DNA of 64,000 nt, taken from assembly GCA_964443245.1 (NCBI GenBank), contig CAYUEG010000001.1, forward strand, positions 34,526 to 98,525, read 5' to 3'. The stretch is from an uncultured Burkholderiales bacterium. GTDB lineage: Bacteria; Pseudomonadota; Gammaproteobacteria; Burkholderiales; JAEUOS01. Both the position numbers and the translations under genes were made by a program. Below are positions 2,942 to 57,598 of the stretch, piece by piece. The stretch's first letter is position 1. Each line of letters begins with the position of its first letter. The notes beneath the pieces are model-generated. The model searched no databases. It saw nothing but the letters and a program-made list of their open reading frames with translations, and was not told the DNA's origin.

Positions 2942-4714
2942 ATGCCAGCCGTCGACTCCACGATCACTTATCGTCTGTTTTGTAGCGATCCGCGCGCGCA
3001 TCTGTTTCGCGTCGTCCTCACCGTGCACCATCCGGACCCGGCCGGCTGCGTGCTGTCGCTCCCGGCCTGGATTCCGGGAAGCTACATGATTCGCGAATTC
3101 GCCCGCAACATCGGGCCCATTCGCGCACGAAGCGGGCGGCGCAGCGTCGCATTGACGAAGGTCGATAAGCACACTTGGCATGCCGCCGCGTGCGACGGCG
3201 CCCTGGAGGTGGAATACGAAGTCTATGCCTGGGACCTCTCCGTACGTTCCGCACACCTGGACGAGAGCCATGCATTCTTTAACGGTTCGAGTGTGTTTCT
3301 GAGCGTCCATGGCCATGAGCAGGCGCGCCACCTCGTGCAATTGGTACGGCCGGCCGGAAGACGGTATGCCAATTGGGCTGTCGCTACAACGCTTGCGAGA
3401 GCGCCGGCCACACGAGATCGCGGCTTTGGCAGCTATTACGCCAACAGCTACGATGAACTGATCGACCATCCGGTCGAAATGGGCCAGTTCACGTGGGCCA
3501 CGTTTGAAGCCTGTGGCGTGCCCCATGCCGTCGCCATCACCGGACTGCACGATTGCGATACCCAACGCCTGTGTGCCGATCTGAAAAAGGTGTGCGAAAC
3601 GCAGATCCGCTTCTTCCATGGGCCGCAAGCGTCACATCAATCCCCACCATTCTCGCGCTATCTGTTCCTCGTCATGGCGGTGGGCGAGGGGTATGGTGGG
3701 CTGGAACATCGCAGCTCGACGGCGCTCCTGTGCTCCCGCAATGATCTGCCTTTTCCCTCAATGGGCGCTGCAACGGAGGCCTATCGCGGTTTTCTCGGCT
3801 TATGCAGCCATGAGTATTTTCATGCGTGGAATGTCAAGCAACTGAAGCCGGCCGTCTTTGCGCCGTACGATCTGACGCGCGAGAACTACACGCGTCTGCT
3901 GTGGGCCTTTGAAGGCATTACCAGCTATTACGATGACGTCATGCTGTTACGGGCGGGGGTGATCTCCAGACAGGAATATCTGGACACGCTGGCGCGTGCG
4001 ATACGCGGGGTGCTACGCGGCGCTGGCAGACTCAAGCAATCGGTGGCCGAATCCAGTTTTGACGCCTGGATCAAGTACTACCGGCAGGACGAGAACGCTC
4101 CCAATTCGGTGGTGAGCTACTACACCAAGGGCGCATTGGTCGCCCTGTGCATCGACCTGATGCTGCGGCAGGCCTCGGATGGCAGGCGGTCACTGGATGA
4201 TGTGATGCGCAAGCTGTGGCGCGAGCATGGCGCAACTGGCCAGGGAGTGCCGGAAGCGGGCGTCGAATCAGCGGTACTGGACGTAGCGACTCCCGGGTTG
4301 CGCCGTCGCATGGCGCGGTTTCTCCGCGATGCCGTTCATGGCACGACCGAGTTGCCCCTCAAAGCGCTATTGAAAACGGCGGGTTTTGATCTGCGCGTCT
4401 CACCGGGGGTAGCAAATGCGCTCGGCGCGCGCACAGCCCGCAGTGCCGGCGGCGTCAAGCTGACCCACGTGCTTGACCAAGGTGCAGCGCAGCGCGCCGG
4501 CCTTTCGGCGGGCGACGAAGTCATTGCCTTGAATGGAATCCGGGTCAGCGCCGACACCTTCGAGGGCTTGCTCGCCCGTCTGCCGAAACAGGCTCGGATC
4601 GACGTGCACGCATTCCGGCGCGACGAACTCATCACGCGGGTGCTCACGCCAAGCGAAGGCGAAATCGAGGTCTCGCTGAAGCCTGTTGAGGCTGTGGGTA
4701 CCTCTAGAGATTGA
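2942..4714 (+). CDS. M61 family metallopeptidase with C-terminal PDZ domain
   Basis: 590 aa. HExxH zinc motif within CSHEYFHAWNVK, and a PDZ-like GLSAGDEVIALNG near the C-terminus. Confidence 0.8.
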   Translation: MPAVDSTITYRLFCSDPRAHLFRVVLTVHHPDPAGCVLSLPAWIPGSYMIREFARNIGPIRARSGRRSVALTKVDKHTWHAAACDGALEVEYEVYAWDLSVRSAHLDESHAFFNGSSVFLSVHGHEQARHLVQLVRPAGRRYANWAVATTLARAPATRDRGFGSYYANSYDELIDHPVEMGQFTWATFEACGVPHAVAITGLHDCDTQRLCADLKKVCETQIRFFHGPQASHQSPPFSRYLFLVMAVGEGYGGLEHRSSTALLCSRNDLPFPSMGAATEAYRGFLGLCSHEYFHAWNVKQLKPAVFAPYDLTRENYTRLLWAFEGITSYYDDVMLLRAGVISRQEYLDTLARAIRGVLRGAGRLKQSVAESSFDAWIKYYRQDENAPNSVVSYYTKGALVALCIDLMLRQASDGRRSLDDVMRKLWREHGATGQGVPEAGVESAVLDVATPGLRRRMARFLRDAVHGTTELPLKALLKTAGFDLRVSPGVANALGARTARSAGGVKLTHVLDQGAAQRAGLSAGDEVIALNGIRVSADTFEGLLARLPKQARIDVHAFRRDELITRVLTPSEGEIEVSLKPVEAVGTSRD

Positions 4715-6296
4715 CGCCCGGTATCCGCGACAGATCCACTTCGTCAATCTGCTCCGGGTTGAGAAACTCTTCGGCGTACTTGAGGTAAACCTTTTCCCGG
4801 ATGAACACATCGAAGAGATCCGGGTCCACATGGCCGTTGAGCTTGAACTTTCCGAGAATCTCGAGCGATTCGGTAAGCGTCTTGCCCTTCTTGTAGGGTC
4901 GATCGCGTGCAGTCAGGGCCTCAAAAATGTCCGCAATTCCCATGACCCGTGCCTGCACGCTCATCTGGTCGCGCTTCAAGCCCTTCGGATAACCCTTGCC
5001 ATCCATGCGCTCGTGGTGGCCTCCGGCATACTCCGGAACATTCTTCAGGTGCTTTGGCCAAGGCAGGGTCTCGAGCATCTTGATCGTGGCCACGATGTGG
5101 TTGTTGATCACTTCCCGTTCTTCTGCGGTGAGCGTACCTGCCCGTATCGTCAGGTTCTTCAGTTCGTCAGGTGAAAGAAAATCGCTCTCTGCGCCAGAAA
5201 CGTCGCGCCAGCGGTAGCCGGCAATGCGCTTGACGCGGGCAATGTCGTCTTCCTTCATGAACTCGCCACCGACATTGGCACGACGCAGGAACGCACGATC
5301 CTCCTCGATCAACTGCAGTTTTTCGTCAGCCGCCGCCCGGGTCATCTCGCCCTTGAGGACGGCAATTTCGATATCGCGCTTGAGCACTTCAAAACGCGTA
5401 TCGACCATATGTATCCGGTCGAATATGGTCTCCAGCTTGGTGGCCTTGTCAACCACATGCACCGGGGTCGTGACCTTGCCACAGTCGTGGAGCAGCCCGG
5501 CGATCTTGAGTTCGTAACGATCGCGGTCGGTCATCGTGAAGTCCTTGAGCGGACCCACGTCGGTATTGTTTACAGCCTCGGCCAGCATCATGGTCAGGCT
5601 GGGTACCCGCTGGCAATGCCCGCCGGTGTAGGGTGACTTCTCGTCAATGGCAGTGTTCATCACGTTGATGAACGACTCAAAGAGTTGCTCCAGCTGCAGA
5701 ATCAGGTTGCGATTGGTCAGTGCGATCGCCGCCTGCGAAGCCAGGCTCTCCGCCAATCGCTGATCAGCATCCGAAAAGGTCGTGACCTTGCCGGTCACCG
5801 GATCCAGACGGTTGAGTAACTGCAAAACACCGATGATCTCGTTCTCATGATCCCGCATGGGGATGGTGAGAAACGAAGTCGAGCGGTAGCCCGTCTTCTT
5901 GTCGAACGCGCGGGTGCCGGTGAAATCGAAGCCTTCCGCCGTATAGGCATCCGCAATGTTGACAGTATCACCCGTGAGGGCGGCATAGGCTGCCACCATG
6001 TTCCGGTTGGGCTTGCCATCATCCTCGTACAGCTTGATCGGATAAAACGTAATCGGACTTCCCGACGTGCCGCCGAGATGGATGTTCAACGAATCGTTGA
6101 GCAGGATTTCGAAGTTGAGTTTGTCACCATCGATGACCCGATACAGGGTACCGCCATCTGCCTGAGTGATGTGCTTCGCCGCTTGCAGAATCTTGTCAAG
6201 GAGCGCGTTGATATCACGCTCCTGCGACAGGGCCGCCCCCACCGCATTGAGTTGTTCAAGCCGCCTGAACAGCTCCTCGACTGAAACCGAAGTCAC
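4704..6296 (-). CDS. GAF domain-containing HD-GYP phosphodiesterase (predicted c-di-GMP hydrolase)
   Basis: N-terminal GAF (FDKKTGYRSTSFLTIPM...EIIGVLQLLN), an HD motif (LLHDCGK) and GGHHERMDGKGYPKG. GTG start at 6296 overlaps the upstream stop (GTGA). Confidence 0.85.
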   Translation of the reverse strand: MTSVSVEELFRRLEQLNAVGAALSQERDINALLDKILQAAKHITQADGGTLYRVIDGDKLNFEILLNDSLNIHLGGTSGSPITFYPIKLYEDDGKPNRNMVAAYAALTGDTVNIADAYTAEGFDFTGTRAFDKKTGYRSTSFLTIPMRDHENEIIGVLQLLNRLDPVTGKVTTFSDADQRLAESLASQAAIALTNRNLILQLEQLFESFINVMNTAIDEKSPYTGGHCQRVPSLTMMLAEAVNNTDVGPLKDFTMTDRDRYELKIAGLLHDCGKVTTPVHVVDKATKLETIFDRIHMVDTRFEVLKRDIEIAVLKGEMTRAAADEKLQLIEEDRAFLRRANVGGEFMKEDDIARVKRIAGYRWRDVSGAESDFLSPDELKNLTIRAGTLTAEEREVINNHIVATIKMLETLPWPKHLKNVPEYAGGHHERMDGKGYPKGLKRDQMSVQARVMGIADIFEALTARDRPYKKGKTLTESLEILGKFKLNGHVDPDLFDVFIREKVYLKYAEEFLNPEQIDEVDLSRIPGVNL

Positions 6297-8668
6297 TTGA
6301 TGCAGACTGCCCTAACTTGTTTGAGATCGGTCAGGCCCATCAGGACCTTCTCCATGCCATCCATCTTCAGCGTGTTCATGCCCTCTTCCACGGCAGCAGT
6401 GAACAAGGCGGCCACACGCGCCTTCTCCTGAATCATTTTCTTCAACACCTCGGTGGCGATCATCAACTCGTGCAAACCCGCGCGGCCGCGATACCCGGTG
6501 TTGGAGCACTTCTCGCAACCCTTGGGGCGATACAGGGTCAGCTTGCCATCCTTGCCGTACTCCTCAATCCAGCGATCGTAGAGCTTCTTGAATTGACCTT
6601 GGGGATCCGCTTTCCAGACCGGTGTCTTGACAAGTTCTTCCGCGTATTCGGTGATGAACTGCTTGAGTTCGGTTGCATCCGGATGGTAGGGCTCCTTGCA
6701 ATCCGAGCACAGGCGCTTGGCAAGACGCTGGGCCAGGATCCCCAGGAGCGCATCCCCGAAGTTGAAGGGGTCGCAGCCCATGTCGAGCAGGCGGATGACG
6801 GCCTCTGGCGCGCTGTTGGTGTGCAGCGTAGCGAACACCAGGTGGCCGGTGAGCGATGCTTCGATGCCGGTGTTGGTCGTCTCGGCATCGCGCATCTCAC
6901 CCACCATGATGATGTCCGGATCGGCGCGCAGGAAAGCCTTCATGACGACTGCGAAGTCGAGGCCTGCCTTCTTGTTTACCTGCACCTGGCGCAGGCCCTT
7001 TTGCGTAATCTCGACCGGATCCTCGGCAGTCCAGATCTTGGTGTCAACGGTGTTCAGAAAGCCGAGCACGGAGTGCAGTGTTGTGGTCTTGCCGGAACCG
7101 GTCGGGCCGCAAACAAAAAACAGCCCATACGGCTTGCTTACCGTCTTCTTGAGGTTCTCGCTGTTGTATTTGGTCAGCCCCAGCTTGTCGATCGGGATGG
7201 GTTCACCCGCGGCAAGGATACGCATGACCACGTCTTCGACACCACCCTGGGTCGGGATCGTCGCGACTCGCAGCTCGATATCGAGCGGGCCAAACTTCTT
7301 GAACTTGATCTTGCCGTCCTGCGGCTTGCGCTTTTCCGAAATGTCGAGATCGCACATGATCTTCAGACGTGCCGCAATGGCCGCACGATAGCTGGCGGGT
7401 ATCTCGATGTAGTTCATCAGAGAGCCGTCCTTGCGAAACCGGATCTCGGTCTTTGCCTTGCCAGGATAGGGCTCGATATGGATGTCCGACACACCCATGT
7501 TGTAGGCGTCGACAATGATCTTGTTGACCAGCTTGACGAGTTCATTGTCGGCCGCAGCATCGACGTCATCGGTGGAATTGCCGAGAGAATCCACCGCTTC
7601 ATCGTCCCCCATGCCAGACAGCAGGTCATCGATAGAGCTGGCATCCGCCACCTCGCCAAAGAAACTCGCGAGCGTCTGCTTGAACTCAATACGTGTCGTG
7701 ACGCGATAGGCAATCTTCATTGCCCGCGGAAACACGTTGTTGACGATGCGCGAACTCTTGACCCGCTCCGGATCAAGACACATCACCACAAGCCCTTCCT
7801 TGGCGTCGTCAATCGGAATCCATTCGCTGGACTCGACATAATCACGCTTCAGGTTCTTGAGCAGGTCCATCGGCTTGATGCGGTCTGCCTTGAACGGCTC
7901 ATAGGGCACACCAAAAAACTTTGACAGTCCTGCCCCGATGGCGGGAATCTTGACCTGAAATTCGGTGGTCAGTACCTCTTCGATATCGATGCCCTTGCGT
8001 CGTGCCGAACGCGTCGCCAGATCAAACTCCTGTGCCGACAGTACTGCATCCGCGACCAGATAGTCATACTTGGTTTTGACGGGCTGCGCCGATTTCTGCC
8101 GCTGACGAAAGGCAATCGCCAGAGTTTGGGTCAACCCGGCAACGCCCTCCTCTTCCAGTGCACTGAACGGCTGACCCGACTTGTTGTTGATGATCTGGAC
8201 AACACCAATCAATTCATTGGCCTGAGCGTCCACAATCGGTGCAACCAGCATCTGCTTGGTGCGGTAACCGGTTCGCTTGTCCACCTCCTGCAGAAAGCGC
8301 AAGTTTGGATTATGCGATTTCAGCTCTGCTTCGTCGTACACGTCCTTGATGTTGATGACTTTCTTGGACAAAGCCACATAACCGGCAATGCTCTGCTCGG
8401 CGATGGGCAGTTTCAAGTCCTTGAACGAATTCAGCCCCGTCTTGACCTTCGAAACAATCGAAGCCTTGTCCTCGCCCATCGAGTAGATTGTCAGGCGATC
8501 AGCATTGAACAGGGTGCAGATCTCCTGACTGACCTCCAACATGATCTCGTCGACGTTGTTGGTCGCATGGATCCGGTTGGTGACAGTCTGCAGGTTCTTC
8601 TGAAAATTCAGTTTCAGATTGACATCCGGCGCCTGCGCCGCCGGTTTCGGACTCAACACTGCGCTCAT
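6293..8668 (-). CDS. GspE/PilB-family secretion-type ATPase with N-terminal GAF domain
   Basis: Walker A GPTGSGKT (7085-7108), Walker B DPDIIMVGEMRD, His box GHLVFATLHTNSA, and a CSDC...CEKC zinc motif. T2SSE_N-like segment at aa ~200-310 and GAF at aa ~40-188 (VDKRTGYRTKQMLVAPI). ATG at 8668 preceded by GAGGTGG. Confidence 0.85.
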   Translation of the reverse strand: MSAVLSPKPAAQAPDVNLKLNFQKNLQTVTNRIHATNNVDEIMLEVSQEICTLFNADRLTIYSMGEDKASIVSKVKTGLNSFKDLKLPIAEQSIAGYVALSKKVINIKDVYDEAELKSHNPNLRFLQEVDKRTGYRTKQMLVAPIVDAQANELIGVVQIINNKSGQPFSALEEEGVAGLTQTLAIAFRQRQKSAQPVKTKYDYLVADAVLSAQEFDLATRSARRKGIDIEEVLTTEFQVKIPAIGAGLSKFFGVPYEPFKADRIKPMDLLKNLKRDYVESSEWIPIDDAKEGLVVMCLDPERVKSSRIVNNVFPRAMKIAYRVTTRIEFKQTLASFFGEVADASSIDDLLSGMGDDEAVDSLGNSTDDVDAAADNELVKLVNKIIVDAYNMGVSDIHIEPYPGKAKTEIRFRKDGSLMNYIEIPASYRAAIAARLKIMCDLDISEKRKPQDGKIKFKKFGPLDIELRVATIPTQGGVEDVVMRILAAGEPIPIDKLGLTKYNSENLKKTVSKPYGLFFVCGPTGSGKTTTLHSVLGFLNTVDTKIWTAEDPVEITQKGLRQVQVNKKAGLDFAVVMKAFLRADPDIIMVGEMRDAETTNTGIEASLTGHLVFATLHTNSAPEAVIRLLDMGCDPFNFGDALLGILAQRLAKRLCSDCKEPYHPDATELKQFITEYAEELVKTPVWKADPQGQFKKLYDRWIEEYGKDGKLTLYRPKGCEKCSNTGYRGRAGLHELMIATEVLKKMIQEKARVAALFTAAVEEGMNTLKMDGMEKVLMGLTDLKQVRAVCIK

Positions 8669-8708: not shown

Positions 8709-9788
8709 TCATTGCGAAGGACCCCGTGAAGCCCAAAGTCCTCCCTCCAGAAGCGCTACCTTGAATCCACGATGCGCCAGCAAAAACGCTGCGGCCGCGC
8801 TTCGACGGCCGCTCTGGCAATACACCACATACTCCTTGCTCTTGTCCAGAACCGGAAACGCGTTGCGAATCTCTGCCAGCGGTACGTTGATTGCGGCCGA
8901 CAGGTGATCGTACTGGTATTCGGAAGGATAGCGGACGTCCAGCCACTGCGCACCCGCCGCCACTTTCTCTTTCCCCGCCTCCATGTGGACCCTGTTCAGC
9001 AATGGCTCCTTGAGCAGTGCAATGAAATCCTGTTTGGCGAGACGGAGCAGCACACCATCCAGCTTCATCGTCACCGTGGCATTGCGCTTCGCTTCGGACA
9101 CCAGTGCTTCCTCGCCAAACGCATCACCGCTCTTCAAATCCGCAAGGACTACCACGACACCGCCAACCAGACGCGTTACCTGCGCACGACCCGACTCGAT
9201 GACGTAATAATAGTCGCCTTCATCTCCCTCACGAATCACAACGTCGCCGGATTTGACCTCCACCCGAAAAAAACGATTCAGCAATTCGCCAATATGGGCC
9301 GATGGCAGGTTTCCGAACGCACCCGTCCTCAGGTTATTGACACTAAAGACCCCCGACATGACGTTCCAGGAGCTTGGCACCGGAGGTTCCGCAGCCGCGA
9401 GTGTCTTGAAACGGCCGGTTCGGGTAGCGTCAAACTTTGCCAGCTGATCCCAGGTCATCATGATGTCCAGCATGTCACTATCGATCCGGATCAATTCGAT
9501 CGCACTCAAAGCGCGGCCGCGCAAAATCGGTGTACTGCGGAACAAAGGATCACGCGCTGCCACGGAGCCCGCTTCAACAATCTCCTCTGATCCGTCTTCA
9601 AACACCAAAGCCACTTTGCCCGACAGGAGGTAGGAGACCTGATCCGCAGCAGATTTCATTCTGAAGGGATCTTGCCCTTCCGCCATGTTCTCGGTGTAAC
9701 ACAAGTCGGAGAATTCCTGAAGGCGAGCCTCCGACAACGCCGACAAGGGCTCAAATTGGCGGAGCAGCGCAGAAGAAATCGAGCTCAT
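8709..9788 (-). CDS. Cyclic nucleotide-binding domain protein with C-terminal rhodanese domain
   Basis: Canonical CNB segment GDYYYVIESG...GDAFGEEALVSEAKRNATV, preceded by a degenerate CNB-like N-terminus. The rhodanese domain has an intact active-site loop CQSGRRS (Cys codon 8817-8819). Confidence 0.8.
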   Translation of the reverse strand: MSSISSALLRQFEPLSALSEARLQEFSDLCYTENMAEGQDPFRMKSAADQVSYLLSGKVALVFEDGSEEIVEAGSVAARDPLFRSTPILRGRALSAIELIRIDSDMLDIMMTWDQLAKFDATRTGRFKTLAAAEPPVPSSWNVMSGVFSVNNLRTGAFGNLPSAHIGELLNRFFRVEVKSGDVVIREGDEGDYYYVIESGRAQVTRLVGGVVVVLADLKSGDAFGEEALVSEAKRNATVTMKLDGVLLRLAKQDFIALLKEPLLNRVHMEAGKEKVAAGAQWLDVRYPSEYQYDHLSAAINVPLAEIRNAFPVLDKSKEYVVYCQSGRRSAAAAFLLAHRGFKVALLEGGLWASRGPSQ

Positions 9789-9793
9789 GGCCG

Positions 9794-10561
9794 CTAGAAC
9801 TCGAAAATCTGGCCGTTTTGGAGCATGCGCGGTTTGTAGTCACCGGCAAACTCCTCGATCTCCTGCATCGTCAGTTCGATTTCACCCGGCTTCAAGTGGG
9901 TAATGAAGATTTCCGCACTGCGCTCCAGCTTTGCCAATTCCTCGGCGAGCAAGCTCGGGCACAGGTGCTTGGATGCAATCGCCAGTTGCTTCTCGCGATT
10001 GCAAAACGCGGTCTCAATGATCAAGTACTTCAAATTGGGAATCCGGTTGACCACTTTCCAGAGCGGATCGTTGGTAAAGGTATCCCCCGAAAACACCAGG
10101 CTATGCTTGCCGCTATTGATCTGGTAACCCACCGCGGGCACTGTGTGGTTCGCAGGAAGCACCGTCAGTTTGCGCCCATCAATGGCAAGGCTCTGGCCTT
10201 CCTTGATGGTCTGATAGCGCATGAACGGCTTTTCCGCTGTCGGAATGGCAGTGAAATCCGGCCAGACGTTCCAGTTGAAGATATGTTTCTTGAGCGTATC
10301 GAGCGTCTCCTCGATCGCATAGATCGTAAGAGGCTTGTCACGCATCGCGCCCACGGTATCGACAATAAACGGGATGGTCGCAATATGGTCCAGGTGCGAG
10401 TGCGTCAGAAAAATGTGGTCAATCATCGACATCTCCGTCAGGGAGAGGTCGGTAACACCGGTGCCTGCATCAATCAGGATGTCGTTGTCGATGCGCAATG
10501 AGGTCGTGCGGAGATGTTTGCCCCCGATCCCTCCGCTGCATCCAAGCACTTTGACCTTCAT
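9794..10561 (-). CDS. Class II 3',5'-cyclic-nucleotide phosphodiesterase (metallo-beta-lactamase fold)
   Basis: 255 aa. MKVKVLGCSGGIGG N-terminus and an HSHLDH (HxHxDH) metal motif, typical of the CpdP/PDE1-like class II cAMP phosphodiesterases. Confidence 0.75.
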   Translation of the reverse strand: MKVKVLGCSGGIGGKHLRTTSLRIDNDILIDAGTGVTDLSLTEMSMIDHIFLTHSHLDHIATIPFIVDTVGAMRDKPLTIYAIEETLDTLKKHIFNWNVWPDFTAIPTAEKPFMRYQTIKEGQSLAIDGRKLTVLPANHTVPAVGYQINSGKHSLVFSGDTFTNDPLWKVVNRIPNLKYLIIETAFCNREKQLAIASKHLCPSLLAEELAKLERSAEIFITHLKPGEIELTMQEIEEFAGDYKPRMLQNGQIFEF

Positions 10562-10583: not shown

Positions 10584-12836
10584 TCACTTCTCGTCGAATG
10601 TGGTCACGCCGTCCCAATTCGCACCTGGCGGGTTCTTGCGGAACTGGGCCACGCGATCTGCATATTTCTGATACAGGTACGAATCCGGATTCATGCGCTG
10701 AAGGTTGAGCAGGTGCATGTCAAACTGATCCCAGGACTGGGCGCGGTAGGCCTTGAGGGCTTCACGCCAGATCTTGATCTCGTCCTTCAGTTCCTTGCTG
10801 GCTTCGGCCTCCAGGCAAAGGGGCTCGAAAATGGCCACAGGTTCGTTCTTCCCCTTCACCCGGATTCGATCCAGCTCACGATACAGCACATCGCGCACCA
10901 GCCTCTCGGTGTTCTCCCCCACCATGACGCCGACGCCGTACTCCTTGGTACGCCCCTCCAGTCGAGAAGCCAGATTAACGGCATCGCCCATTGCGGTGTA
11001 GGCCTTGCGTACTTTCGATCCCATGTCGCCGACGCGCACGACACCGGAGTTGAGGCCGATCCCGATCTTCAAATCCGGCCAACCCTTGGCGATGAACTTG
11101 GCACGCAGGTCCTCGCACGCCTTCTGCATTTCGAGCGCGCTCACAATGCCCTGCCGGGCATGCTCCGGGTCCGGAACCGGCGCACCCCAGAAAGCCATGA
11201 TGCAATCGCCTATGTACTTGTCCAGCGTGCCACGATGGCTCGAAATGATTGCCGACATGGTCGTCAGAAAATCATTGATGTAGAGCGCCAAGTCCGCCGC
11301 CGAAAGACTTTCGGAAATGGTCGTGAAGCCGCGTACATCCGAAAACAGGATCGTCAACTCGGCTTCTGCCGGCTGCATGCTGTACTTTTCGGGATCCTTG
11401 GCCATCTCGTCAACCAGTTCTGGAGGCACGTATTGGCCAAACAGCTCGGTAAACTGCCTCTTGCTGCGACTCTCCACGAAGTAGCCATAAGCCATATTCA
11501 ATGTGAATAACCCGGCAGTCATCAATAACGAGGCTGCAAGCGGAATCACAGTGTCTGCCTGGGTATAGATCACATAGTTGAGTGCAATGATCAACAGCAT
11601 AGCCACCACTGCCACCAGGGTTGCACGCAACGGGGACAGAAATGGCATGAGCATTGCCAGGGTAATGCCACCAATCAGGAGCAGTACCACCTCTGCTCCA
11701 ACGGTAAAGGCAGGCCGTTGTTTGAAGTTTTGGGACAACATGCCGGAGAGGAGGTTGGCGTGGATCTCTACCCCAGGATAGGCTTCACCCACAGGCGTGG
11801 AGCGCAAATCCAGCAGGCCTGGTGCGGTAGTGCCCCAAATGGCGATCTTCCCTCTCAGATCTTCCTTACGCGCCTTGCCTTCCCAAATGTCTCCCAATGA
11901 CACATAACGAAAGCTGTTGGCTGTGGGCCCACCGCGCCCCCGATAGGGCACCAGGGCACTCACGGTCTTGTCGACCGGTATCGTGAATGTCCGATTGGCA
12001 GCATTCAATTCCAGCCATTCCATCCCGCTGTAATTCTTGGATAGAAAGCGTTCCGGTGGATAACCCGGCTGCACCTTGGGCGATCCCAAGAGCGTGCGGA
12101 ACATGGCAAGGGAAAGGGACTCGTAGTACTCGCCGCGATACTCGGAGAGCATGGGAACCCTGCGCACCACGCCATCATGATCGACAATCGGGTTGAACAG
12201 GCCTGCAGAGTAAGCCGCCTTTTGCAGCGCCGGCAGGTTGCCGCCGTGCCCATTCCACTGGAACCAGTCAATGTTGCGTCCCTTGAAGGAACCGGCCGGC
12301 ATCACAGGGGCCGGGAGCGCGCCACTCTTTTCTGCATCCGCTTCACTCGACAAGTAATAGCCCAGCACCACAGGCTTGCCGGCAATCGATTTCGCAAACT
12401 GATCATCGAAATCCAGGCTGGGACGCAATTGCTGCAACTTGGCCTGGAACTCGGGCACACCTTGCAATTCGGTCTTTGCGAGCGCCTCGAGTGTTGCGAT
12501 GCCAGAACTGGTATCAGGTTCGGCAAATACGACGTCGAAGCCCACCATCGCAACGCCGTAATCGTCCTTGCCGTCACCCATGATCTTGTTCATGAGTTTG
12601 GCCATTTTGTCGCGATTCCACGGCCAACGGCCCAACTTACCCAAACTCTTCTCGTCAATATCAAGAATGACGATTCTGTCATCAAGCTTGGACGGCATCG
12701 TCAACTTCATGCGCGCATCGTAGATGATGGCGTCGAGCTGACTGATGAAGCGGATATTGAAAATCTCGGCTGCATGGGCGAGAAACACCAGCAGCACTGC
12801 AATCCCTAAGCTGATTCGGACGATGTGCTGCTTCAA
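10584..12836 (-). CDS. CHASE2 sensor-containing class III adenylate/guanylate cyclase (predicted adenylate cyclase)
   Basis: N-terminal TM helix, a CHASE2-like periplasmic region, then a TM bundle. Cyclase core FSDVRGFT...LDKYIGDCIMAFWG...YTAMGDAVNLASRLE. TTG start at 12836 preceded by GGGAGG 5 nt upstream. Confidence 0.85.
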   Translation of the reverse strand: MKQHIVRISLGIAVLLVFLAHAAEIFNIRFISQLDAIIYDARMKLTMPSKLDDRIVILDIDEKSLGKLGRWPWNRDKMAKLMNKIMGDGKDDYGVAMVGFDVVFAEPDTSSGIATLEALAKTELQGVPEFQAKLQQLRPSLDFDDQFAKSIAGKPVVLGYYLSSEADAEKSGALPAPVMPAGSFKGRNIDWFQWNGHGGNLPALQKAAYSAGLFNPIVDHDGVVRRVPMLSEYRGEYYESLSLAMFRTLLGSPKVQPGYPPERFLSKNYSGMEWLELNAANRTFTIPVDKTVSALVPYRGRGGPTANSFRYVSLGDIWEGKARKEDLRGKIAIWGTTAPGLLDLRSTPVGEAYPGVEIHANLLSGMLSQNFKQRPAFTVGAEVVLLLIGGITLAMLMPFLSPLRATLVAVVAMLLIIALNYVIYTQADTVIPLAASLLMTAGLFTLNMAYGYFVESRSKRQFTELFGQYVPPELVDEMAKDPEKYSMQPAEAELTILFSDVRGFTTISESLSAADLALYINDFLTTMSAIISSHRGTLDKYIGDCIMAFWGAPVPDPEHARQGIVSALEMQKACEDLRAKFIAKGWPDLKIGIGLNSGVVRVGDMGSKVRKAYTAMGDAVNLASRLEGRTKEYGVGVMVGENTERLVRDVLYRELDRIRVKGKNEPVAIFEPLCLEAEASKELKDEIKIWREALKAYRAQSWDQFDMHLLNLQRMNPDSYLYQKYADRVAQFRKNPPGANWDGVTTFDEK

Positions 12837-12894: not shown

Positions 12895-13635
12895 CTACTT
12901 GTAGAAAAACTCCATCTTGGTGCCCGCGATCTCGATCACGTCGTGGTCGTTCAGTGGATGCGCCTGGGCGTCAAGCGCCTTGCCATTGACGACCGGGAAG
13001 GTCGCACCTTCCACGTGGGTGATGAAAAAGCCCTGCGGGCGGCGAGTGATGACGGCCACTTGCACACCCGGTTTGCCCAAGGTTGTCAGTGCCTTGGTGA
13101 GCACAAGTTCCTTGCCCACATTTGCACCCGACAACAGCTGGATTGCCCCCTGTTTCGCGGGCGCAGCGGCCGGGGCCGGGGCAGCAGCTGCCGCCGGGGC
13201 AGCCGCTGCGGCAGCCGGGCCTTTGACCGTACGGTCGTCATCGGCCTTGGCAGCCACCGGCGCGGCAGCAGCTGGGGCCGGCTTCGGCATCGAACCAGGA
13301 CGCAACACCATCGTCTTTTCGAAATCGGCAGCAGCAGCAGCCTTTGGCGCCTCATTGATGTATTTGAGCTTGTATTTGCCCAACTCAATGACGTCATTGG
13401 GTTGCAGGAAATGCTTCTTGATCGGCTGGCCGTTAACCAATGTTCCATTGGTCGACCCCAAGTCCTCCAGGAATGAGTCGTTGAGGATCGTCACGATGAC
13501 CGCATGCTCGCCAGAGACAGCCAGATTGTCGATCTGGATGTCATTGTGCGGCTTGCGGCCGATCGTGGTGCGCTCCTTGCTCAGGGTAATTTCCTTGAGC
13601 ACCAAGCCATCCATGCTGAGAATTAGCTTTGCCAT
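12895..13635 (-). CDS. FHA domain protein (N-terminal canonical FHA, Ala/Pro-rich linker, C-terminal FHA-like domain)
   Basis: TIGRKPHNDIQIDNLAVSGEHAVI...GSTNGTLVNG is a canonical FHA core. The second beta-rich domain ends ...DHDVIEIAGTKMEFFYK. Confidence 0.8.
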   Translation of the reverse strand: MAKLILSMDGLVLKEITLSKERTTIGRKPHNDIQIDNLAVSGEHAVIVTILNDSFLEDLGSTNGTLVNGQPIKKHFLQPNDVIELGKYKLKYINEAPKAAAAADFEKTMVLRPGSMPKPAPAAAAPVAAKADDDRTVKGPAAAAAAPAAAAAPAPAAAPAKQGAIQLLSGANVGKELVLTKALTTLGKPGVQVAVITRRPQGFFITHVEGATFPVVNGKALDAQAHPLNDHDVIEIAGTKMEFFYK

Positions 13636-13685
13636 AGCCCGATCCTTTTCTCTTTCACTTGTTATTGCATTTTGTTACAGCCAGT

Positions 13686-14516
13686 TTACTTGAACCATCC
13701 CAAGAACTTGCCAAACATCCCTTTTGCAGCCGGGTATTCCTTCAAAATCTTGACGAGTAGCACGGATACGTTATCACGCCCGCCATTGTCGTTAGCCATC
13801 TGTACAAGCTGCTGCGCGGCCAGATTCAGATTTCCACCGAGCGACTCCAATGCCAGGCCGATTTCAGGGTCTTCCACCATGTCGGACAAGCCGTCCGAGC
13901 AGAGCAGATAGATATCCCCGGGTTGGGTGTCGTAGTCGTGAATTTCAGGTTCTACCGTCGGGTCAATGCCGAGGGCGCGCGTGACCAGATTCTTGTTCTG
14001 GGAATGCTTCGCCTCTTCTTCCGTGATCATGCCGCTGTCAATCTGCTCCTGCAGCAATGAATGGTCCCGTGTAACCTGCGAGAGGACACCATCACGCATT
14101 CGGTAAAGACGTGAATCGCCGATATGTGCAACCGTCATCCGGTTATCGTAAAAGACAGCCATCACCAGCGTGGTGCCCATCCCTGAGTATTGCGGTTGCG
14201 ACTGGGACGCTGAATAAATTGACGTATTCGCCTTGGTGATCTGCTCGCGCAACATCCGCGCCGCCATGGTTCCCGCCTCCGCCCCCTGAGGGTCGGGTTC
14301 AAAGGGTGCATGCTGCGCCATGGCGGCCTGCAGTTCCGTCATCAGCACTGTTGTTGCCATACCGCTGGCGACTTCACCAGCGTTGTAACCGCCCATGCCA
14401 TCGGCCAGAATCGCCAACCCGTGGCGTACATCGTTCGCTATCGAGTCCTCGTTATGAGACCGCACCATACCCGGATCGGTATGGCCGACGATCTCGATCG
14501 CGTCAGAAAGGCTCAT
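13686..14516 (-). CDS. PP2C-family Ser/Thr protein phosphatase (Stp1-like)
   Basis: Motifs RSHNEDS, ADGMGG, SDGLSD and GGRDNVSVLLV. Confidence 0.9.
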   Translation of the reverse strand: MSLSDAIEIVGHTDPGMVRSHNEDSIANDVRHGLAILADGMGGYNAGEVASGMATTVLMTELQAAMAQHAPFEPDPQGAEAGTMAARMLREQITKANTSIYSASQSQPQYSGMGTTLVMAVFYDNRMTVAHIGDSRLYRMRDGVLSQVTRDHSLLQEQIDSGMITEEEAKHSQNKNLVTRALGIDPTVEPEIHDYDTQPGDIYLLCSDGLSDMVEDPEIGLALESLGGNLNLAAQQLVQMANDNGGRDNVSVLLVKILKEYPAAKGMFGKFLGWFK

Positions 14517-14524
14517 GCTCGATC

Positions 14525-17341
14525 CTATAGGGAGATGTCTACGTCGTCATCCTTGCCAGCAGGTTTGGCACCTGCGGGTTTGGCGGCAGCACCACCCGCG
14601 GGAAGGATGACCGTCTTGTCGGCGTCTGACGTCGCGGCAGGCGCTGCCTGCATCTGCACGGTCCCGCCGGCGTGCGGATTCGGCGCAACCGGAGCCGCAG
14701 GAGCAGCAGGCTTGGGAGTCACGGGCCGCGCCGCCGGAATGTTCATGCCGGTTGACGATGCAGGATTCTCACCGAAGGGCCGGAGCGCGGCCGCGAACTC
14801 TTCGCCAGTCTGAAAGCGTTCATCGGCGTCCTTTGCCATGGCGCGCTTGAGCACCTCTGCAAGTCCTTCAGGCACGTCCGGATTCAACGTGCGAACGTCT
14901 GCAGGTTCTTCATTCGCAATCTTGAACATCAACTGGGCCATCGAATCGCCAACAAACGGCAACCTGCCGGTCAGCATCTGGTAAATGCTGACGGCAAGGG
15001 AGAACAAATCGGAACGCCCATCGACCTTCTTGCCCGAGAGTTGTTCGGGCGACATGTAAGACGGCGTACCGAGCACCATCCCGGTCTTGGTCTTGGACGA
15101 GTCTGTGACCCGTGCGATACCGAAATCAGCGACCTTCGGGTTATCGCCCTCAAGGTCATACATGATGTTCGCCGGCTTGATGTCGCGGTGCACGACATTC
15201 TGGCGATGTGCGTATCCGAGTGCATCAGCGACTCTCGCAAAGATCGAGACCACGCGCGGAATTGGCAACAGCGATTCCGGCTTGGTGTAGGGCACCAAAT
15301 CCTGCCCTTTGAGCAATTCCATGGCGATGTAGCACAGGTCGTGCTCGTCGCCAGTGTCGTAAATGGTGACAATGTTCTGGTGATTGAGGCGGCCGGCGGT
15401 CTCTGCCTCGCGGAAGAAGCGCTCCTTTGCTTCCGCCAGTTCGTCTGCTTCGAACTCCTGGGAGAGCGCCATCGTCTTGATGGCAACCGAGCGACCGATC
15501 TTCGGATCCTTGCCGAGATAGACCACGCCCATGGCACCCTTGCCGAGTTCCTTCTCGATCTGGTACCTGCCCAGCATGGGCTTCTCGCCCTGACCGGTCG
15601 CATCCAGGATGCTCGCATTGCTGCGACCGCTGGCACCGCCCAGAATCACCGTTTCAGAAAGGTTCTTGGCACGGGCGATCTTCTGCTCCAGATCCTTGTA
15701 CTTCGGATCGTAGCCGTGCATGTGTTCATACACGGCCTGAGCCTTGTTGAATTGCCGCTTCCGCTCGAAATCGAGCGCCAGGTTGTACAGGTTGTCCATC
15801 AAGGCGCCGTCAAATGGCACTTTGCGAAACTTGTCAAACGCAATATCAAGCTGACCCTGCCCCTGAAACGCCAGACCCAGCATGCGGTTTGACTCAGCAG
15901 ACTCAACATCGGACTTCTGCTTGCCGGCCTCCGTCACGATGAAGCGTTTGGTGGTGAGCAAAAGATGACCAACGAGCAACAGCGTGGCCGGCACCATCAG
16001 CTGGATCCACATGCCTGCGGACGTCATCAGCAGAAAATGGACTACGAGCAAACCCGCAAGCAATCCAAGCGTGATCAGTCCGGCAGGCTTGGCTTTCAGT
16101 TTTGGCAGCATCCCGATCAGGTAGGCAGCGATCAGAATGAATATCAGGAGCTCAACCCAGATCGCCCAGGTCGGCGCGACAAAAAAGTGCTCGGAAAGGA
16201 TACTGGACACGGAGTGTGCCATTTTCTCCACCGGGGTCATCGCGGCCGAGATCGGCGTCGGAAAACTGGTACCGACACCCGCCGCCGTGGGGCCGATCAG
16301 CACAATCTTGCCAGCGTAGTTCTCCGCCTTGATCTTCCCTGACAGCACGTCATAGAAGGAATCCAGCTGGAAGGCCTTTTTGCCGTCCCGATCCTTGTAG
16401 TAGTACGTGTACATCTGGTTCAGGGGATCTGTGGTAATGGCAAGCTTGCCGAGCTTGAGCTGCTCGCCCCAATTTACCTTGATGTCGGAAATACCGAGAT
16501 TGAGGCTCTTGGCAGCGATCATCACCGAGTAAGACGGGAAGTACCTGTCAAAGTACTGCACCACCAAGGGTTCGGTGCGTACGCCGCCATCGACGTCAGG
16601 CAAGTCGTTCAGATGTCCAAGACCCGCAGCTGCCGTACCCAATTGCTCAATCGGCAATTGAATGGCCGCAGAGGGAACCGCATTGCCCCCCTTGTCCTCA
16701 AACGAGCTCTTTTCGGTAAATTTCGGCAGGCTCTTGTCCGGCTTGCCGCGCGGGTCGCCCAGTGTAAACACCAGAGGCAACATGACATTGCCAGCCTTCG
16801 TGTAGCTTTCCGCAAGTCTGCGGTCGGTATTGAGCGCGACTTCGGCTTCCTTGAGCAAAGCACCGAATTGAGCCAGTTCCGCCGAACCCTGAACAGGTTG
16901 GGCCGCCGCTTCCACTGCAGGGGCCGACGTCACGGCCACTGCCCCGGGGACAGCGGGGGCCGCTTGGGCACCTGCCGGCTTTCCGCCGTACAGCTCGATC
17001 AACTTGTTGATGTAAACCAGACCGGGATCTTGCTGCGCTTCAAAGAAGAACACGGTGTTGCCGATAACCTTCACCTTTGCTCCGGCGAGCAAGTCGGTCA
17101 TTTTGGCGTGGATGTCACGACTCCAGGGCCAACGGCCAATATTGTTGATGCTCTGGTCGTCAATCGCGATGATCGCGATTTGCTTGTTCGGCTCCTTGGA
17201 AGAAGCCTTGACCCCAAGATCGTAGGCTTTGCGCTCAAGGCTTTGCAGCAGGTCACCACCGCGCAAGAACAAAAAAACGAGCGCGATGACCACCCCCAGA
17301 AACCAATCTGATTTCCAGAAATCCGACTTGATTTTCGCCAT
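14525..17341 (-). CDS. CHASE2 sensor-containing transmembrane Ser/Thr protein kinase
   Basis: N-terminal TM helix, CHASE2-like region, TM bundle and a TPR-like segment. C-terminal Hanks kinase: GKGAMGVVY, VAIK, HRDIKPAN, DFGIA, SPE. Pro/Ala-rich tail. ATG at 17341 preceded by GAGGAGGA; the ORF-track start at 17404 is less likely. Confidence 0.85.
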   Translation of the reverse strand: MAKIKSDFWKSDWFLGVVIALVFLFLRGGDLLQSLERKAYDLGVKASSKEPNKQIAIIAIDDQSINNIGRWPWSRDIHAKMTDLLAGAKVKVIGNTVFFFEAQQDPGLVYINKLIELYGGKPAGAQAAPAVPGAVAVTSAPAVEAAAQPVQGSAELAQFGALLKEAEVALNTDRRLAESYTKAGNVMLPLVFTLGDPRGKPDKSLPKFTEKSSFEDKGGNAVPSAAIQLPIEQLGTAAAGLGHLNDLPDVDGGVRTEPLVVQYFDRYFPSYSVMIAAKSLNLGISDIKVNWGEQLKLGKLAITTDPLNQMYTYYYKDRDGKKAFQLDSFYDVLSGKIKAENYAGKIVLIGPTAAGVGTSFPTPISAAMTPVEKMAHSVSSILSEHFFVAPTWAIWVELLIFILIAAYLIGMLPKLKAKPAGLITLGLLAGLLVVHFLLMTSAGMWIQLMVPATLLLVGHLLLTTKRFIVTEAGKQKSDVESAESNRMLGLAFQGQGQLDIAFDKFRKVPFDGALMDNLYNLALDFERKRQFNKAQAVYEHMHGYDPKYKDLEQKIARAKNLSETVILGGASGRSNASILDATGQGEKPMLGRYQIEKELGKGAMGVVYLGKDPKIGRSVAIKTMALSQEFEADELAEAKERFFREAETAGRLNHQNIVTIYDTGDEHDLCYIAMELLKGQDLVPYTKPESLLPIPRVVSIFARVADALGYAHRQNVVHRDIKPANIMYDLEGDNPKVADFGIARVTDSSKTKTGMVLGTPSYMSPEQLSGKKVDGRSDLFSLAVSIYQMLTGRLPFVGDSMAQLMFKIANEEPADVRTLNPDVPEGLAEVLKRAMAKDADERFQTGEEFAAALRPFGENPASSTGMNIPAARPVTPKPAAPAAPVAPNPHAGGTVQMQAAPAATSDADKTVILPAGGAAAKPAGAKPAGKDDDVDISL

Positions 17342-17517
17342 CGTGTCCTCCTCGCGCTTGTGTTTTTCTCGCGGAACGCGCCACTGCATCACTTCGGACT
17401 GCAACTACCTCGCCACGCCCTGATGAAGCCGCCAAACCGGCAAAGAGCAGGGCGTAACGCTCAAGATTCTACGGCAAAACTGGAAAAAAGAGGGAATTTC
17501 GCAAAATAAACAGCATG

Positions 17518-17547
17518 ATGATACGCATTCTTGTAGTTGACTATCAA
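17518..17547 (-). promoter_or_regulatory. Candidate sigma70 promoter for the eight-gene signalling operon
   Basis: On the minus strand: TTGATA (17542-17547), an 18-nt spacer, then TATCAT (17518-17523). It lies in the only AT-rich stretch between the terC terminator and the kinase start. Pattern match only. Confidence 0.3.
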
Positions 17548-37750: not shown

Positions 37751-37908
37751 GCCACCCTCCAGAAAGCCCTTCTTGCCGCGTGGTGCACATCGTGGCACAG
37801 GAAAGGCAGCCAGTACAGATTGGCCATGATGATCAATTCTGGCAACAATCGGGCAAGTGCCCTAGCTCGGCGATCAACTACGCCTCTTGTCGCTGCTAAA
37901 CTGGCAAC

Positions 37909-53524: not shown

Positions 53525-53570
53525 GCGACTTTCCCTCAATCGTTCCCGTGCGGTTTCCAGGCCCGGAGAA

Positions 53571-55736: not shown

Positions 55737-55762
55737 GATTCCTCCAACGCACGCGCAGTGCG

Positions 55763-56290
55763 CTAATTCCCAACATTCAAAAACTGCGAATCTTCGACCA
55801 GCCGCTCAAAATGCAATTCCTGCCACAGGCGCTCTTCACCGCCGGATGCGCCGGCCGCCTCTTTCCAGCGTTTGCCCGCCCACGCAGGCGCGTCGGCTTC
55901 CACCGCCTCGCTTTGCCCGGATGGGTTGCGCAGACCATGCATGCGGCCCACCAACAGCGCCGCATTGATTCCCAAGCGACTACCCGCCAGAACCAGGCGA
56001 TTGTCAGTACTGCGAGCGGTGGGTTCGCCGCCTGAAAATGCAGAAAAATCGACCACGCTGAACAAGCTGCCCCGAATATTGGCAACCCCAAGAAACCAGG
56101 GCTTTGTCAGCGGCACCGGCAACATTTCCGGTACAGGCAGGATCTCGCCCGCATCCTCCAGACCAATCAGCCAGAACCGCGACCCGCACTGCACCCCCAG
56201 CCGTGACGCACTTCCACCCTCGGTCCGCGCAGCAGAGATGCGCTGGGCGAGATCCTGCTGGAATTGCCTCAGGCTGAGCTTCGTTGCCAT
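55763..56290 (-). CDS. pilI: PilI, CheW-like coupling protein
   Basis: 175 aa CheW-fold protein between pilH and pilJ ([15 protein letters not shown]). Confidence 0.8.
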
Positions 56291-56319
56291 CGCGGACTGG
56301 GGTTCAGTATCTGCAGGAA

Positions 56320-56685
56320 TCAGCCAAGAGTCGCGATCTTGGCGAACAGCTCATCCGGATTGACGGGCTTGACCAGATAAGCCTTGGCGCCCTGGCGCTC
56401 ACCCCAGACCTTGTCGGTTTCCTGGTCCTTGGTGGTGCACATGAAAATCGGGATATGTGCCGTCTCGGCTGCCTTCGTGATCTGGCGCGTCGCCTGAAAG
56501 CCATTCAGACCCGGCATCACGACGTCCATCAGGATCAGATCCGGCAATTCCTTGGCAGCTTTGGCGACGCCTTCTTCACCATTCTCAGCCGTGATCACCG
56601 TGTAACCCTTCTTGGTCAGCACGTCTTGCAGAAAAAACCGTTCGGTGGGGGAGTCATCGACCACCATGACTTTCTTGATTGGCAT
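56320..56685 (-). CDS. pilH: PilH response regulator (single REC domain)
   Basis: VMVVDDSPTE...MDVVMPGLNGFQATRQITK...TTKDQETDKVWGERQGAKAYLVKP closely parallels Pseudomonas PilH. Confidence 0.9.
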   Translation of the reverse strand: MPIKKVMVVDDSPTERFFLQDVLTKKGYTVITAENGEEGVAKAAKELPDLILMDVVMPGLNGFQATRQITKAAETAHIPIFMCTTKDQETDKVWGERQGAKAYLVKPVNPDELFAKIATLG

Positions 56686-56742
56686 GATTCGTTCCTGTCT
56701 TATGGATCAAGTTGGTGAACTGTGTTGGAGAATCCGTGAAGG

Positions 56743-57141: not shown

Positions 57142-57221
57142 CGTCTCCGAATCTTCCGGCCGGCTCACCCACCTGGTCCAGCTGGGCCAGCGTAGCCGCA
57201 GTCTTAGATTTCTTTCGCCAA

Positions 57222-57422: not shown

Positions 57423-57598
57423 ATTTTTTCGATTTTCGCTCTGAAAAACACTAATTTTCGATAGAATGTACATCATAGCATCGGTTTTGGTCTCCTGTTT
57501 TTGCCTCGCATGCGGCCCTTTTCAGCCAAACCGTTTCTGTTTTTCCTCTACCCGGCTGCTGCCATTCCGGCCATGCCGCAGACCCCTAGAATGCATTC

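Follow-up and report, generated by a model that had tools for sequence, protein, structure and literature searches.

We analysed a stretch of 64,000 nucleotides (nt), hereafter the window, from an uncultured Burkholderiales bacterium (GenBank assembly GCA_964443245.1, contig CAYUEG010000001.1, positions 34,526 to 98,525). It contains a minus-strand gene for an ATPase related to the motors of type IV pili and type II secretion systems (T2SS). The open reading frame (ORF) of 791 amino acids (aa), which the original prediction placed at 6293-8668 from the sequence alone, is confirmed by stop-free translation. The ATG is at 8668, and a Shine-Dalgarno sequence, GAGGTGG, is found 6 nt upstream. The protein contains a GAF domain, an N1E domain and a T2SSE ATPase core, with the following features.

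6293-8668, minus strand: GAF-N1E-T2SSE ATPase gene, 791 aa (stop-free translation, Pfam domains)
8111-8554, minus strand: GAF domain, predicted to be of the cyclic mononucleotide (cNMP)-binding type (Pfam aa 39-186, E 1.2e-10; modelled fold aa 13-194)
7649-8062, minus strand: N1E/MshEN-like domain (aa 203-340, modelled with a predicted local distance difference test score, pLDDT, of about 90)
6314-7555, minus strand: T2SSE ATPase core, N2E plus CTE (aa 372-785, Pfam E 8e-113; PDB matches PilB, GspE and PilF)
7085-7108, minus strand: Walker A, GPTGSGKT (aa 521-528, read from the sequence; identical in 80/80 orthologues)
6506-6709, minus strand: tetracysteine zinc motif with a long insert (C654, C657, C718 and C721, all invariant in 80 orthologues)
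7310-7312, minus strand: codon of K453 in PQDGK, the clade signature (K in 80/80 orthologues; R in PilB and GspE)

The orthologues are the best 80 of at least 589 relatives, found by scanning GTDB species, each represented by one genome. They are 67-87% identical to the window protein, and all are from Betaproteobacteria-type genomes. Walker A, the Asp box, Walker B with the catalytic Glu and the His box place the protein in the T2SSE/PilT-like superfamily (PF00437). The Asp box TAEDPVE, Walker B and the His box (DPDIIMVGEMRD, TGHLVFATLHTN) are invariant in the 80 orthologues, as is Walker A. The N1E domain and the C-terminal tetracysteine zinc motif are features of the extension type, to which PilB and GspE belong. 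The Pfam MshEN/N1E match (aa 252-339, E 1.3e-4) scores 22.3 bits, just below the gathering score of 23.1, and this region can be aligned to the N-terminus of Myxococcus xanthus PilB. The original prediction had located Walker A exactly and had credited the protein with every hallmark of a secretion ATPase. Walker A and B, the His box, the four cysteines and N1E bear this out, but the near-universal PQDGR reads PQDGK, with a lysine at position 453. These features are best explained if the window protein works as a hexameric motor ATPase of the PilB/GspE extension type and is competent for catalysis.

Comparison with named families suggested that the protein belongs to none of them. It scores 482.3 bits on the NCBIfam model for PilB (TIGR02538, cut-off 675.65), 435.8 bits on that for GspE (TIGR02533, cut-off 630.25) and 385.6 bits on that for TfpB (NF053534, cut-off 850), and thus falls short of all three cut-offs. 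Scores on the ComGA, PilT and TadA-type models are 236, 159 and 39. As a control, Acinetobacter baumannii PilB scores 862.5 bits on the PilB model and 535 on the GspE model. Five other proteins with PQDGK (K-type) resemble the window protein, with 470-505 bits on the PilB model and 440-475 on the GspE model. By these scores, the window ATPase is an extension-type enzyme outside every named equivalog tested.

PilB is the best labelled match of the window ATPase, with 365 bits to the M. xanthus protein (3jc8) and 482 bits to TIGR02538. The PilB proteins compared (M. xanthus 3jc8, Geobacter metallireducens 5tsg and A. baumannii) have the N1E-N2E-CTE layout, the catalytic boxes and the tetracysteine zinc motif in common with it, and identity to A. 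baumannii PilB is about 41% over a 416-aa alignment. Unlike PilB, the window ATPase has an additional N-terminal GAF domain, PQDGK in place of PQDGR, and no platform gene alongside. GspE (Vibrio vulnificus 4pht, V. cholerae EpsE and Pseudomonas aeruginosa XcpR) also shares the fold, the motifs, the zinc site and N1E, and identity to XcpR is about 40% over a 379-aa alignment. Unlike the case of GspE, no gsp genes are found nearby in the loci examined.

We searched 1.84 billion cluster representatives exhaustively and obtained 52,688 matches. Dozens of the best 150 are GAF-N1E-T2SSE proteins of full length (34-58% identity), and PQDGK is present in 124 of the 146 representatives from this set that were kept in the core alignment. 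PQDGR is present in M. xanthus PilB, V. vulnificus GspE, A. baumannii PilB and P. aeruginosa XcpR. A phylogeny of the ATPase core had been suggested in the original prediction, and a rough neighbor-joining tree groups PilB and GspE together, apart from the K group. Core distances are 0.50 between the window protein and PilB, 0.55 between the window protein and GspE, and 0.42 between PilB and GspE. By this measure the PQDGK clade is more distant from PilB and GspE than those two are from each other. It appears as a third lineage of extension-type ATPases, set apart from PilB, GspE and TfpB. The clade is apparently spread across several phyla. None of its members has a solved structure, and the best PDB match is that of 365 bits. 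The GAF-ATPase architecture is not new as sequence; it is abundant in public databases under the name ‘GspE/PulE family protein’.

The N-termini vary across the clade, with a GAF domain, tandem GAF domains, DUF6982 or nothing recognizable. Five representatives (P0145, P0148, P0169, P0170 and P0270) keep the motifs of a cNMP-type GAF while their Walker A is destroyed, the remnants being TPTGTGNT, APPASGTT, GPPDCGKT, APAGNGRT and GPAASGKR, respectively. They look like pseudo-ATPase paralogues and may be pure sensors or regulators.

The GAF domain at the N-terminus of the window ATPase, already recognized in the original prediction, probably belongs to the subfamily that binds cyclic nucleotides. 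In a PDB sequence search with the N-terminal 202 aa (phmmer), the tandem GAF of Anabaena CyaB2 (1ykd) is the top match, at E 6.5e-29 (about 1e-12 per domain). It is followed by the phosphodiesterase (PDE) domains PDE2A GAF-B (1mc0), PDE6 (6mzb), PDE10A GAF-B (2zmf) and PDE5 GAF-A (3lfv), and by the GAF of the HD-GYP protein PmGH. Matches to GAF domains of the PtsP and phytochrome types are far weaker. With a more diverse alignment, AlphaFold2 modelled aa 1-375 at a pLDDT of 82. A model of the whole protein was discarded; its pLDDT was 42, and its alignment was shallow (33 sequences at 77% identity or more). When the aa 1-375 model was compared with the PDB using Foldseek, PmGH (4mcw) came first, then CyaB2 (1ykd), PDE2A (3ibj), PDE5A (3lfv) and PDE10A (2zmf). 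PDE6 and the GAF-cyclic AMP (cAMP) complex of Lcd1 (5w10) were also matched. Both analyses support the assignment of this domain to the predicted cNMP-binding subfamily.

In the CyaB2 GAFb domain, cAMP is contacted by R291 (adenine N1), T293 (N6/N7), I308 (stacking), and D356 and N359 (water-mediated, N3) (PMC4411481). The equivalents in the window GAF, from an alignment with a construct offset of 57, are R58, T60, V75, D130 and T133. R58, D130 and T133 are invariant among the 80 orthologues, T60 is kept in 79 and V75 in 74. The equivalent of N359 is a threonine, as it is in CyaB2 GAFa and PDE2A. The GAF motifs FLQEVDKRTGYRT and GV(V/I)QIINN are likewise conserved in the 80 orthologues. The known cNMP GAF relatives differ in their outputs. 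CyaB2, PDE2/5/6/10 and Leptospira Lcd1 act on a cyclase, phosphodiesterase or diguanylate cyclase, whereas the output here would be a hexameric motor ATPase. In addition, the window ATPase has a single GAF, as opposed to the tandem pair in relatives such as CyaB2, where the tandem arrangement sharpens specificity (PMC4411481).

The original prediction had further proposed that the GAF senses a ligand other than cyclic di-GMP (c-di-GMP), and the cNMP-type sequence and predicted fold of the GAF agree with this. So does the N1E domain. MshE-type ATPases are c-di-GMP receptors via two 24-residue motifs (PMC5013675). We searched with a relaxed pattern from the same work, two tandem motifs of the form [RKPN]hGxxhhxx[GAS]hhxxxxhxxxhxx[QNKRYWST]. 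None of the 80 orthologues contains even one motif, and their best windows match 7 of 11 positions. A fragment of M. xanthus PilB, the positive control, matches 11 of 11. The N1E domain of the window ATPase is thus predicted to be without a c-di-GMP site. The motor of the V. cholerae MSHA pilus, MshE, similarly has a Pfam MshEN-like match, and its gating by a second messenger at the N-terminus is what is predicted for the window ATPase. Unlike in MshE, both c-di-GMP motifs are missing in the 80 orthologues, and the predicted messenger is cAMP, acting via a separate GAF domain.

The ATPase had been described as an orphan. This holds for machinery partner genes, which are absent from the window, but the gene is a fixed member of an operon. 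Eight minus-strand genes follow one another with intergenic gaps of 8, 50, 58, 22, 5, 40 and -4 nt. They encode, in order, a CHASE2-Ser/Thr kinase, a PP2C phosphatase, an FHA protein, a CHASE2-cyclase, a class-II phosphodiesterase, a cNMP-binding/rhodanese protein, the GAF-ATPase and a GAF-HD-GYP protein. The start of the HD-GYP gene overlaps the stop of the ATPase gene (GTGA). The genes around the ATPase gene are as follows; presence was counted only at related loci with enough flanking sequence.

14525-17404, minus strand: CHASE2-Ser/Thr protein kinase gene, first in the operon (Pfam; in 52/59 loci)
13686-14516, minus strand: PP2C Ser/Thr phosphatase gene (Pfam; in 62/63 loci)
12895-13635, minus strand: FHA-domain protein gene (Pfam FHA E 2.5e-22; in 62/65 loci)
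10584-12836, minus strand: CHASE2-class III adenylate cyclase gene, as classed by sequence (Pfam; in 62/70 loci)
9794-10561, minus strand: metallo-beta-lactamase-fold, class-II cyclic-nucleotide phosphodiesterase-like gene (Pfam Lactamase_B_2, PDEase_II; in 70/74 loci)
8709-9788, minus strand: cNMP-binding (CAP-type) plus rhodanese protein gene (Pfam; in 44/75 loci)
4704-6296, minus strand: GAF-HD-GYP phosphodiesterase gene (Pfam GAF, HD and HD_5; directly downstream in 68/73 loci)
17518-17547, minus strand: sigma-70-like promoter candidate ahead of the kinase gene, TTGATA-18-TATCAT (10/12 matches; weak evidence)

Except for the cNMP-binding/rhodanese gene, the operon genes are present in 88-98% of these loci. 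No other operon protein is as well conserved as the ATPase, whose mean identity is 72%. Carriers among the best 80 include Burkholderiales metagenome-assembled genomes, Gallionella, Sideroxydans, Sulfuritalea, Sulfurisoma sediminicola, Azospira sp. I13, Propionivibrio, Methyloversatilis and Nitrotoga. In many species sucCD and TerC genes are found upstream of the cassette, and the locus is a conserved chromosomal neighborhood and not a mobile island. Far from being a stray orphan, the ATPase gene takes seventh place in a tight operon with colinear gene order across Betaproteobacteria. The original prediction had mentioned neither this operon nor its FHA gene, and the platform-less clade and the pilin-adjacent loci of relatives described below were also absent from it. 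A scan of the region for promoters and terminators gave site counts not above shuffle expectation. A plus-strand ORF at 12917-13693 (258 aa, Ala-rich) was considered as a gene and rejected; it is a shadow of the minus-strand FHA gene despite its ‘conservation’ in tblastn.

The cyclase gene lies three genes upstream of the ATPase gene, as had been stated. The closest PDB match of its catalytic domain is P. aeruginosa CyaB (3r5g). The domain has the two metal-binding Asp residues of class III adenylate cyclases (FSDVRGF among the motifs), and its substrate residues, Lys (LDKYIGD) and Thr (AYTAMGD), are those of CyaB. In the guanylate cyclase Cya2 (2w01) they are Glu and Gly. Because the neighboring cyclase has this adenylate signature, unlike Cya2, cAMP is the most likely messenger for the window ATPase. 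GAF domains bind diverse ligands, and sequence is a poor guide to their specificity (PMC4411481). An alternative is therefore that the GAF senses cyclic GMP or an unrelated molecule, or only dimerizes, while the cyclase acts via the CAP-type protein. The separate cNMP-binding protein in the operon would fit this alternative, as would the threonine at the N359 position and the retention of all five pocket positions in only 24 of 62 GAF-bearing cluster representatives. However, variation among the 80 orthologues is absent or almost absent at the adenine-reading R58/T60, at D130 and T133, and in the phosphate-binding helix motif. The closest solved GAF domains by sequence are cNMP-bound, with the exception of PmGH; by predicted fold PmGH comes first and the cNMP types next. 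Moreover, the GAF-ATPase is inherited together with the adenylate-type cyclase and the phosphodiesterase. We consider a ligand other than cAMP unlikely, although it would be compatible with any of the functions discussed below.

The protein encoded directly downstream of the ATPase is an HD-GYP phosphodiesterase by its motifs. It contains the HD dyad LLHDCGK, and its HHExxDGxGYP motif reads GGHHERMDGKGYP (HHERMDGKGYP). The Pfam HD_5 match has an E value of 1.8e-43, and the PDB matches are PmGH (4mcw, E 7.5e-32) and the cyclic GMP-AMP phosphodiesterase 5z7c. Its own GAF domain contains the motifs FDKKTGYRS and GVLQLLN, has a glycine at the CyaB2 R291 equivalent, and is closest to PDE5 GAF-A. 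Relative to PmGH (4mcw), about 95 aa are inserted between the HD and GYP halves (aa 288-383). A GAF-associated ‘HD-GYP insertion’ has been described for Leptospira LIC_11189 and other bacteria (PMC12943098).

In the window, no genes for the apparatus of a pilus or secretion machine accompany the ATPase gene. A Pfam scan of essentially all window ORFs of at least 70 aa gave no T2SSF, N_methyl pilin, secretin or peptidase A24. Neither tblastn of the window with A. baumannii PilC and PilD and P. aeruginosa XcpS, XcpQ and XcpT nor a relaxed prepilin-motif scan of the 64 kb gave a match. The claim that the window contains no platform, pilin, secretin or prepilin peptidase gene thus survived all three scans. 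To extend this to the clade, we used 167 loci, consisting of 80 genomic, 7 individually looked up and 80 metagenomic loci. Searching these with PilC, XcpS and XcpQ by tblastn gave no match even at E 1e-2; as a control, PilC matches XcpS at E 1e-62. MshE is encoded beside its platform MshG. In contrast, a platform gene is found at 0 of the 167 clade loci.

Pilin genes, on the other hand, are frequent neighbors in relatives. When scanned for prepilin N-termini (GFTLIELMIVVAIIGILAA), 54 of the 80 related loci proved to contain a type IVa major pilin gene, nearly always on the strand of the cassette. Among the 66 loci with the HD-GYP gene and at least 800 nt of downstream flank, pilA is within 1 kb on the same strand in 32, at 1-10 kb in 19, on the other strand in 1, and absent in 14. 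In seven loci of Rhodocyclales type (L030, L031, L033, L034, L035, L052 and L059, from Sulfurisoma, Sulfuritalea and others), the downstream pilin is very short. Its ORF ends about 54 aa past GFTLIE (N-terminus FTLIELMIVVAIIGILAAIAIPQFSEYTK; for example, L033 from about 16430 and L034 from about 14309), and it resembles a truncated Geobacter PilA-N type.

More distant members of the clade are also found near pilus genes. The metagenome locus L097 (G+C content 42%) encodes a GAF-ATPase that shares 40% identity with the window protein. Its gene comes immediately after a minor-pilin operon with FimU-, PilV- and PilX-like genes, in which three genes besides the FimU- and PilX-like ones are N-methyl pilin-like, and it faces a GAF-HD-GYP gene whose product is 56% identical to that of the window. 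The locus L144 (5445-19668) contains a 602-aa PQDGK-type ATPase without GAF, and its cluster has no platform gene. It is flanked by PilD and a FimU-like gene on one side and by FimU, PilV, PilW, PilX and PilY1 on the other. Among 57 other K-type loci, PilD is found in 14 and pilin motifs in 18.

These neighborhoods bear on the type of machine involved. The ATPase might be the motor of a T2SS encoded elsewhere, that is, a GspE paralogue, as its database name, its 436 bits on TIGR02533, and its GspE-like zinc motif and N1E would allow. Its GspE score is, however, below the cut-off of 630 and lower than its PilB score. No operon with GspF, GspL, a secretin and pseudopilins was found at the 167 loci with the tblastn queries PilC, XcpS and XcpQ. 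In addition, the filament genes near the cassette in relatives are of type IVa (sigma-54 pilA, FimU, PilV, PilW, PilX and PilY1). We regard a T2SS motor as highly improbable; the pilin-abutting loci of relatives favor type IV pili over T2SS.

Building on the observed domain content, the conservation of the motifs, pocket and operon, the separation of the clade and the gene neighborhoods, we propose that the window protein is a cAMP-gated accessory ATPase of type IV pili, coupled to c-di-GMP hydrolysis. We put the chances of this model at about even. A cue sensed by CHASE2 would raise cAMP via the CHASE2-adenylate cyclase of the operon, and the class-II phosphodiesterase would remove it. We infer that binding of cAMP to the GAF domain would release or assemble the hexamer, switching the motor on. 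The ATPase would dock on the PilC/PilM base of a type IVa pilus machine that is presumed to be encoded elsewhere. There it could serve as an accessory, signal-gated motor for extension or priming, in the manner of A. baylyi TfpB. In parallel, the GAF-HD-GYP protein would lower c-di-GMP, and the module of kinase, PP2C and FHA proteins would add a phosphorylation input. One extracellular cue would then lead to more cAMP, more pilus activity and less c-di-GMP.

Several points weigh against this model. The ligand assignment of the GAF is based wholly on homology, and the GAF of the HD-GYP protein, in which the R291-equivalent arginine is missing, may have a different ligand. The distance of the clade from PilB and GspE and the Arg-to-Lys change at K453 mean that the mechanics could differ. 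No adjacent pilin is found in the window or in the closest relatives, L001, L002 and L029. Where pilin genes are present, 27 of 62 have their own sigma-54 -24/-12 element. Such promoters make the pilins a separate transcription unit, and the linkage may partly be inherited synteny, like that of sucCD and TerC. Furthermore, as far as the contigs reach, pilus genes are missing within 8-10 kb of the distant clade members L081-L087 (the L081 contig is 6 kb). Their neighbors are unrelated or housekeeping genes, except that L086 is in a cellulose-synthase cluster. In L086 (1-9824) a PQDGK-type MshEN-ATPase is encoded beside BcsG, a GDPD protein, a GAF-HD-GYP protein and a BcsA-like cellulose synthase with PilZ, which hints at a link between the ATPase clade and control of exopolysaccharide.

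These distant loci raise the possibility of a signalling ATPase independent of any filament. It would be a cAMP switch controlling a partner, most plausibly the GAF-HD-GYP protein, and hence the output of c-di-GMP or exopolysaccharide. The absence of a platform gene from all 167 clade loci, the location of the seven distant members among housekeeping genes, and that of L086 within the BcsA-PilZ and BcsG cluster are all consistent with such a role. The ATPase is also paired with a GAF-HD-GYP protein in three lineages (68/73 beta-proteobacterial loci, L097 and L086). The variable sensor domains at the N-termini of the clade, and the pseudo-ATPase relatives that keep the GAF and have lost Walker A, point in the same direction. 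There is a precedent in M. xanthus PilB, which reportedly has a signalling role in exopolysaccharide regulation (PMC5544727). Yet the catalytic apparatus, the zinc motif and N1E are strictly conserved, as for a working motor, and N1E contacts the machine in PilB and GspE (PMC11656802). Clade members are also found repeatedly beside genes for pilins, minor pilins, PilY1 and PilD. A pure signalling role, the main rival of the pilus model, is conceivable, but we are inclined to doubt it. Computation bore out those parts of the original inference that it could address, and the two outputs named there, a distal type IV pilus or T2SS apparatus and a stand-alone regulated motor, are still the ones under consideration.

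The proposed accessory motor can be compared with known systems. TfpB is a second extension motor of A. baylyi, proposed to help prime assembly (PMC8213720; PMC11656802). Similarly, the PQDGK clade has members whose genes accompany those for minor pilins and PilY1, the components of the priming complex. TfpB differs in that it is closer to PilB than the PQDGK clade is, and neither of these two sources mentions a sensor domain in it. The Pil-Chp/CyaB/Vfr circuit of P. aeruginosa also resembles the proposed system, with a CyaB-like cyclase and cAMP tied to type IV pili, and the window encodes ChpA, PilJ and PilI. In P. aeruginosa, cAMP acts on transcription through Vfr (PMC11656802). In contrast, the predicted receptor here is the motor itself, the cyclase carries CHASE2, and a kinase, a phosphatase and an FHA protein are encoded in the same operon.

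In the current view, post-translational gating of type IV pilus extension is the work of c-di-GMP, acting via MshEN or via FimX and PilZ, and of protein inhibitors. To our knowledge, cAMP acts on pili only as a transcriptional input, through Vfr. In a 2024 review on how PilB is regulated, GAF is not mentioned, and cAMP appears only through Vfr (PMC11656802). Our literature searches for a GAF-fused PilB or GspE, or for the eight-gene operon, found no description. If the model is correct, the window ATPase would have the first direct cyclic-mononucleotide gate on any ATPase of the PilT/VirB11 family. A motor that senses cAMP itself would give pili a fast and direct input from this messenger, and the ATPase with and without cAMP would provide a simple in vitro system for the control of hexamers by an N-terminal sensor.

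The existence of a large platform-less clade with the Arg-to-Lys change suggests accessory or regulatory motors behind many ‘GspE/PulE family protein’ annotations. More tentatively, members of the PQDGK clade might be sensor-fused ‘plug-in’ motors without their own platform, recruited to the bases of type IV pili by second messengers. The gate formed by GAF-bound cAMP would be hard-wired to breakdown of c-di-GMP, through the co-evolving GAF-HD-GYP protein, and to eukaryote-like signalling by Ser/Thr kinase, PP2C and FHA proteins. We consider this generalization somewhat improbable as a whole. For environmentally important Betaproteobacteria, including Gallionella, Sideroxydans, Sulfuritalea and Accumulibacter relatives, the operon predicts hard-wired cross-talk between cAMP and c-di-GMP.

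The window contains several other genes. The Pil-Chp chemosensory genes, expected about 39 kb away from the ATPase gene, are indeed found there. ChpA, PilJ and PilI are at 47369-56290, within a cluster at 47369-57195, and the 2056-aa ChpA has multiple Hpt domains. Two plus-strand ORFs at 56284-57195 have no Pfam matches and are probably shadows of minus-strand PilH/PilG response-regulator genes. A gene for a 1968-aa bacterial alpha-2-macroglobulin, with MG domains and a bait region, is located at 31892-37798. No Pfam family at E 1e-4 or below is matched by three consecutive ORFs at 57548-60344 (313, 112 and 508 aa), which are on the minus strand with a rubredoxin gene downstream of them on that strand. 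Finally, a gene at 62870-63991 that runs to the edge of the window encodes a GGDEF-EAL protein, another c-di-GMP enzyme on this segment.

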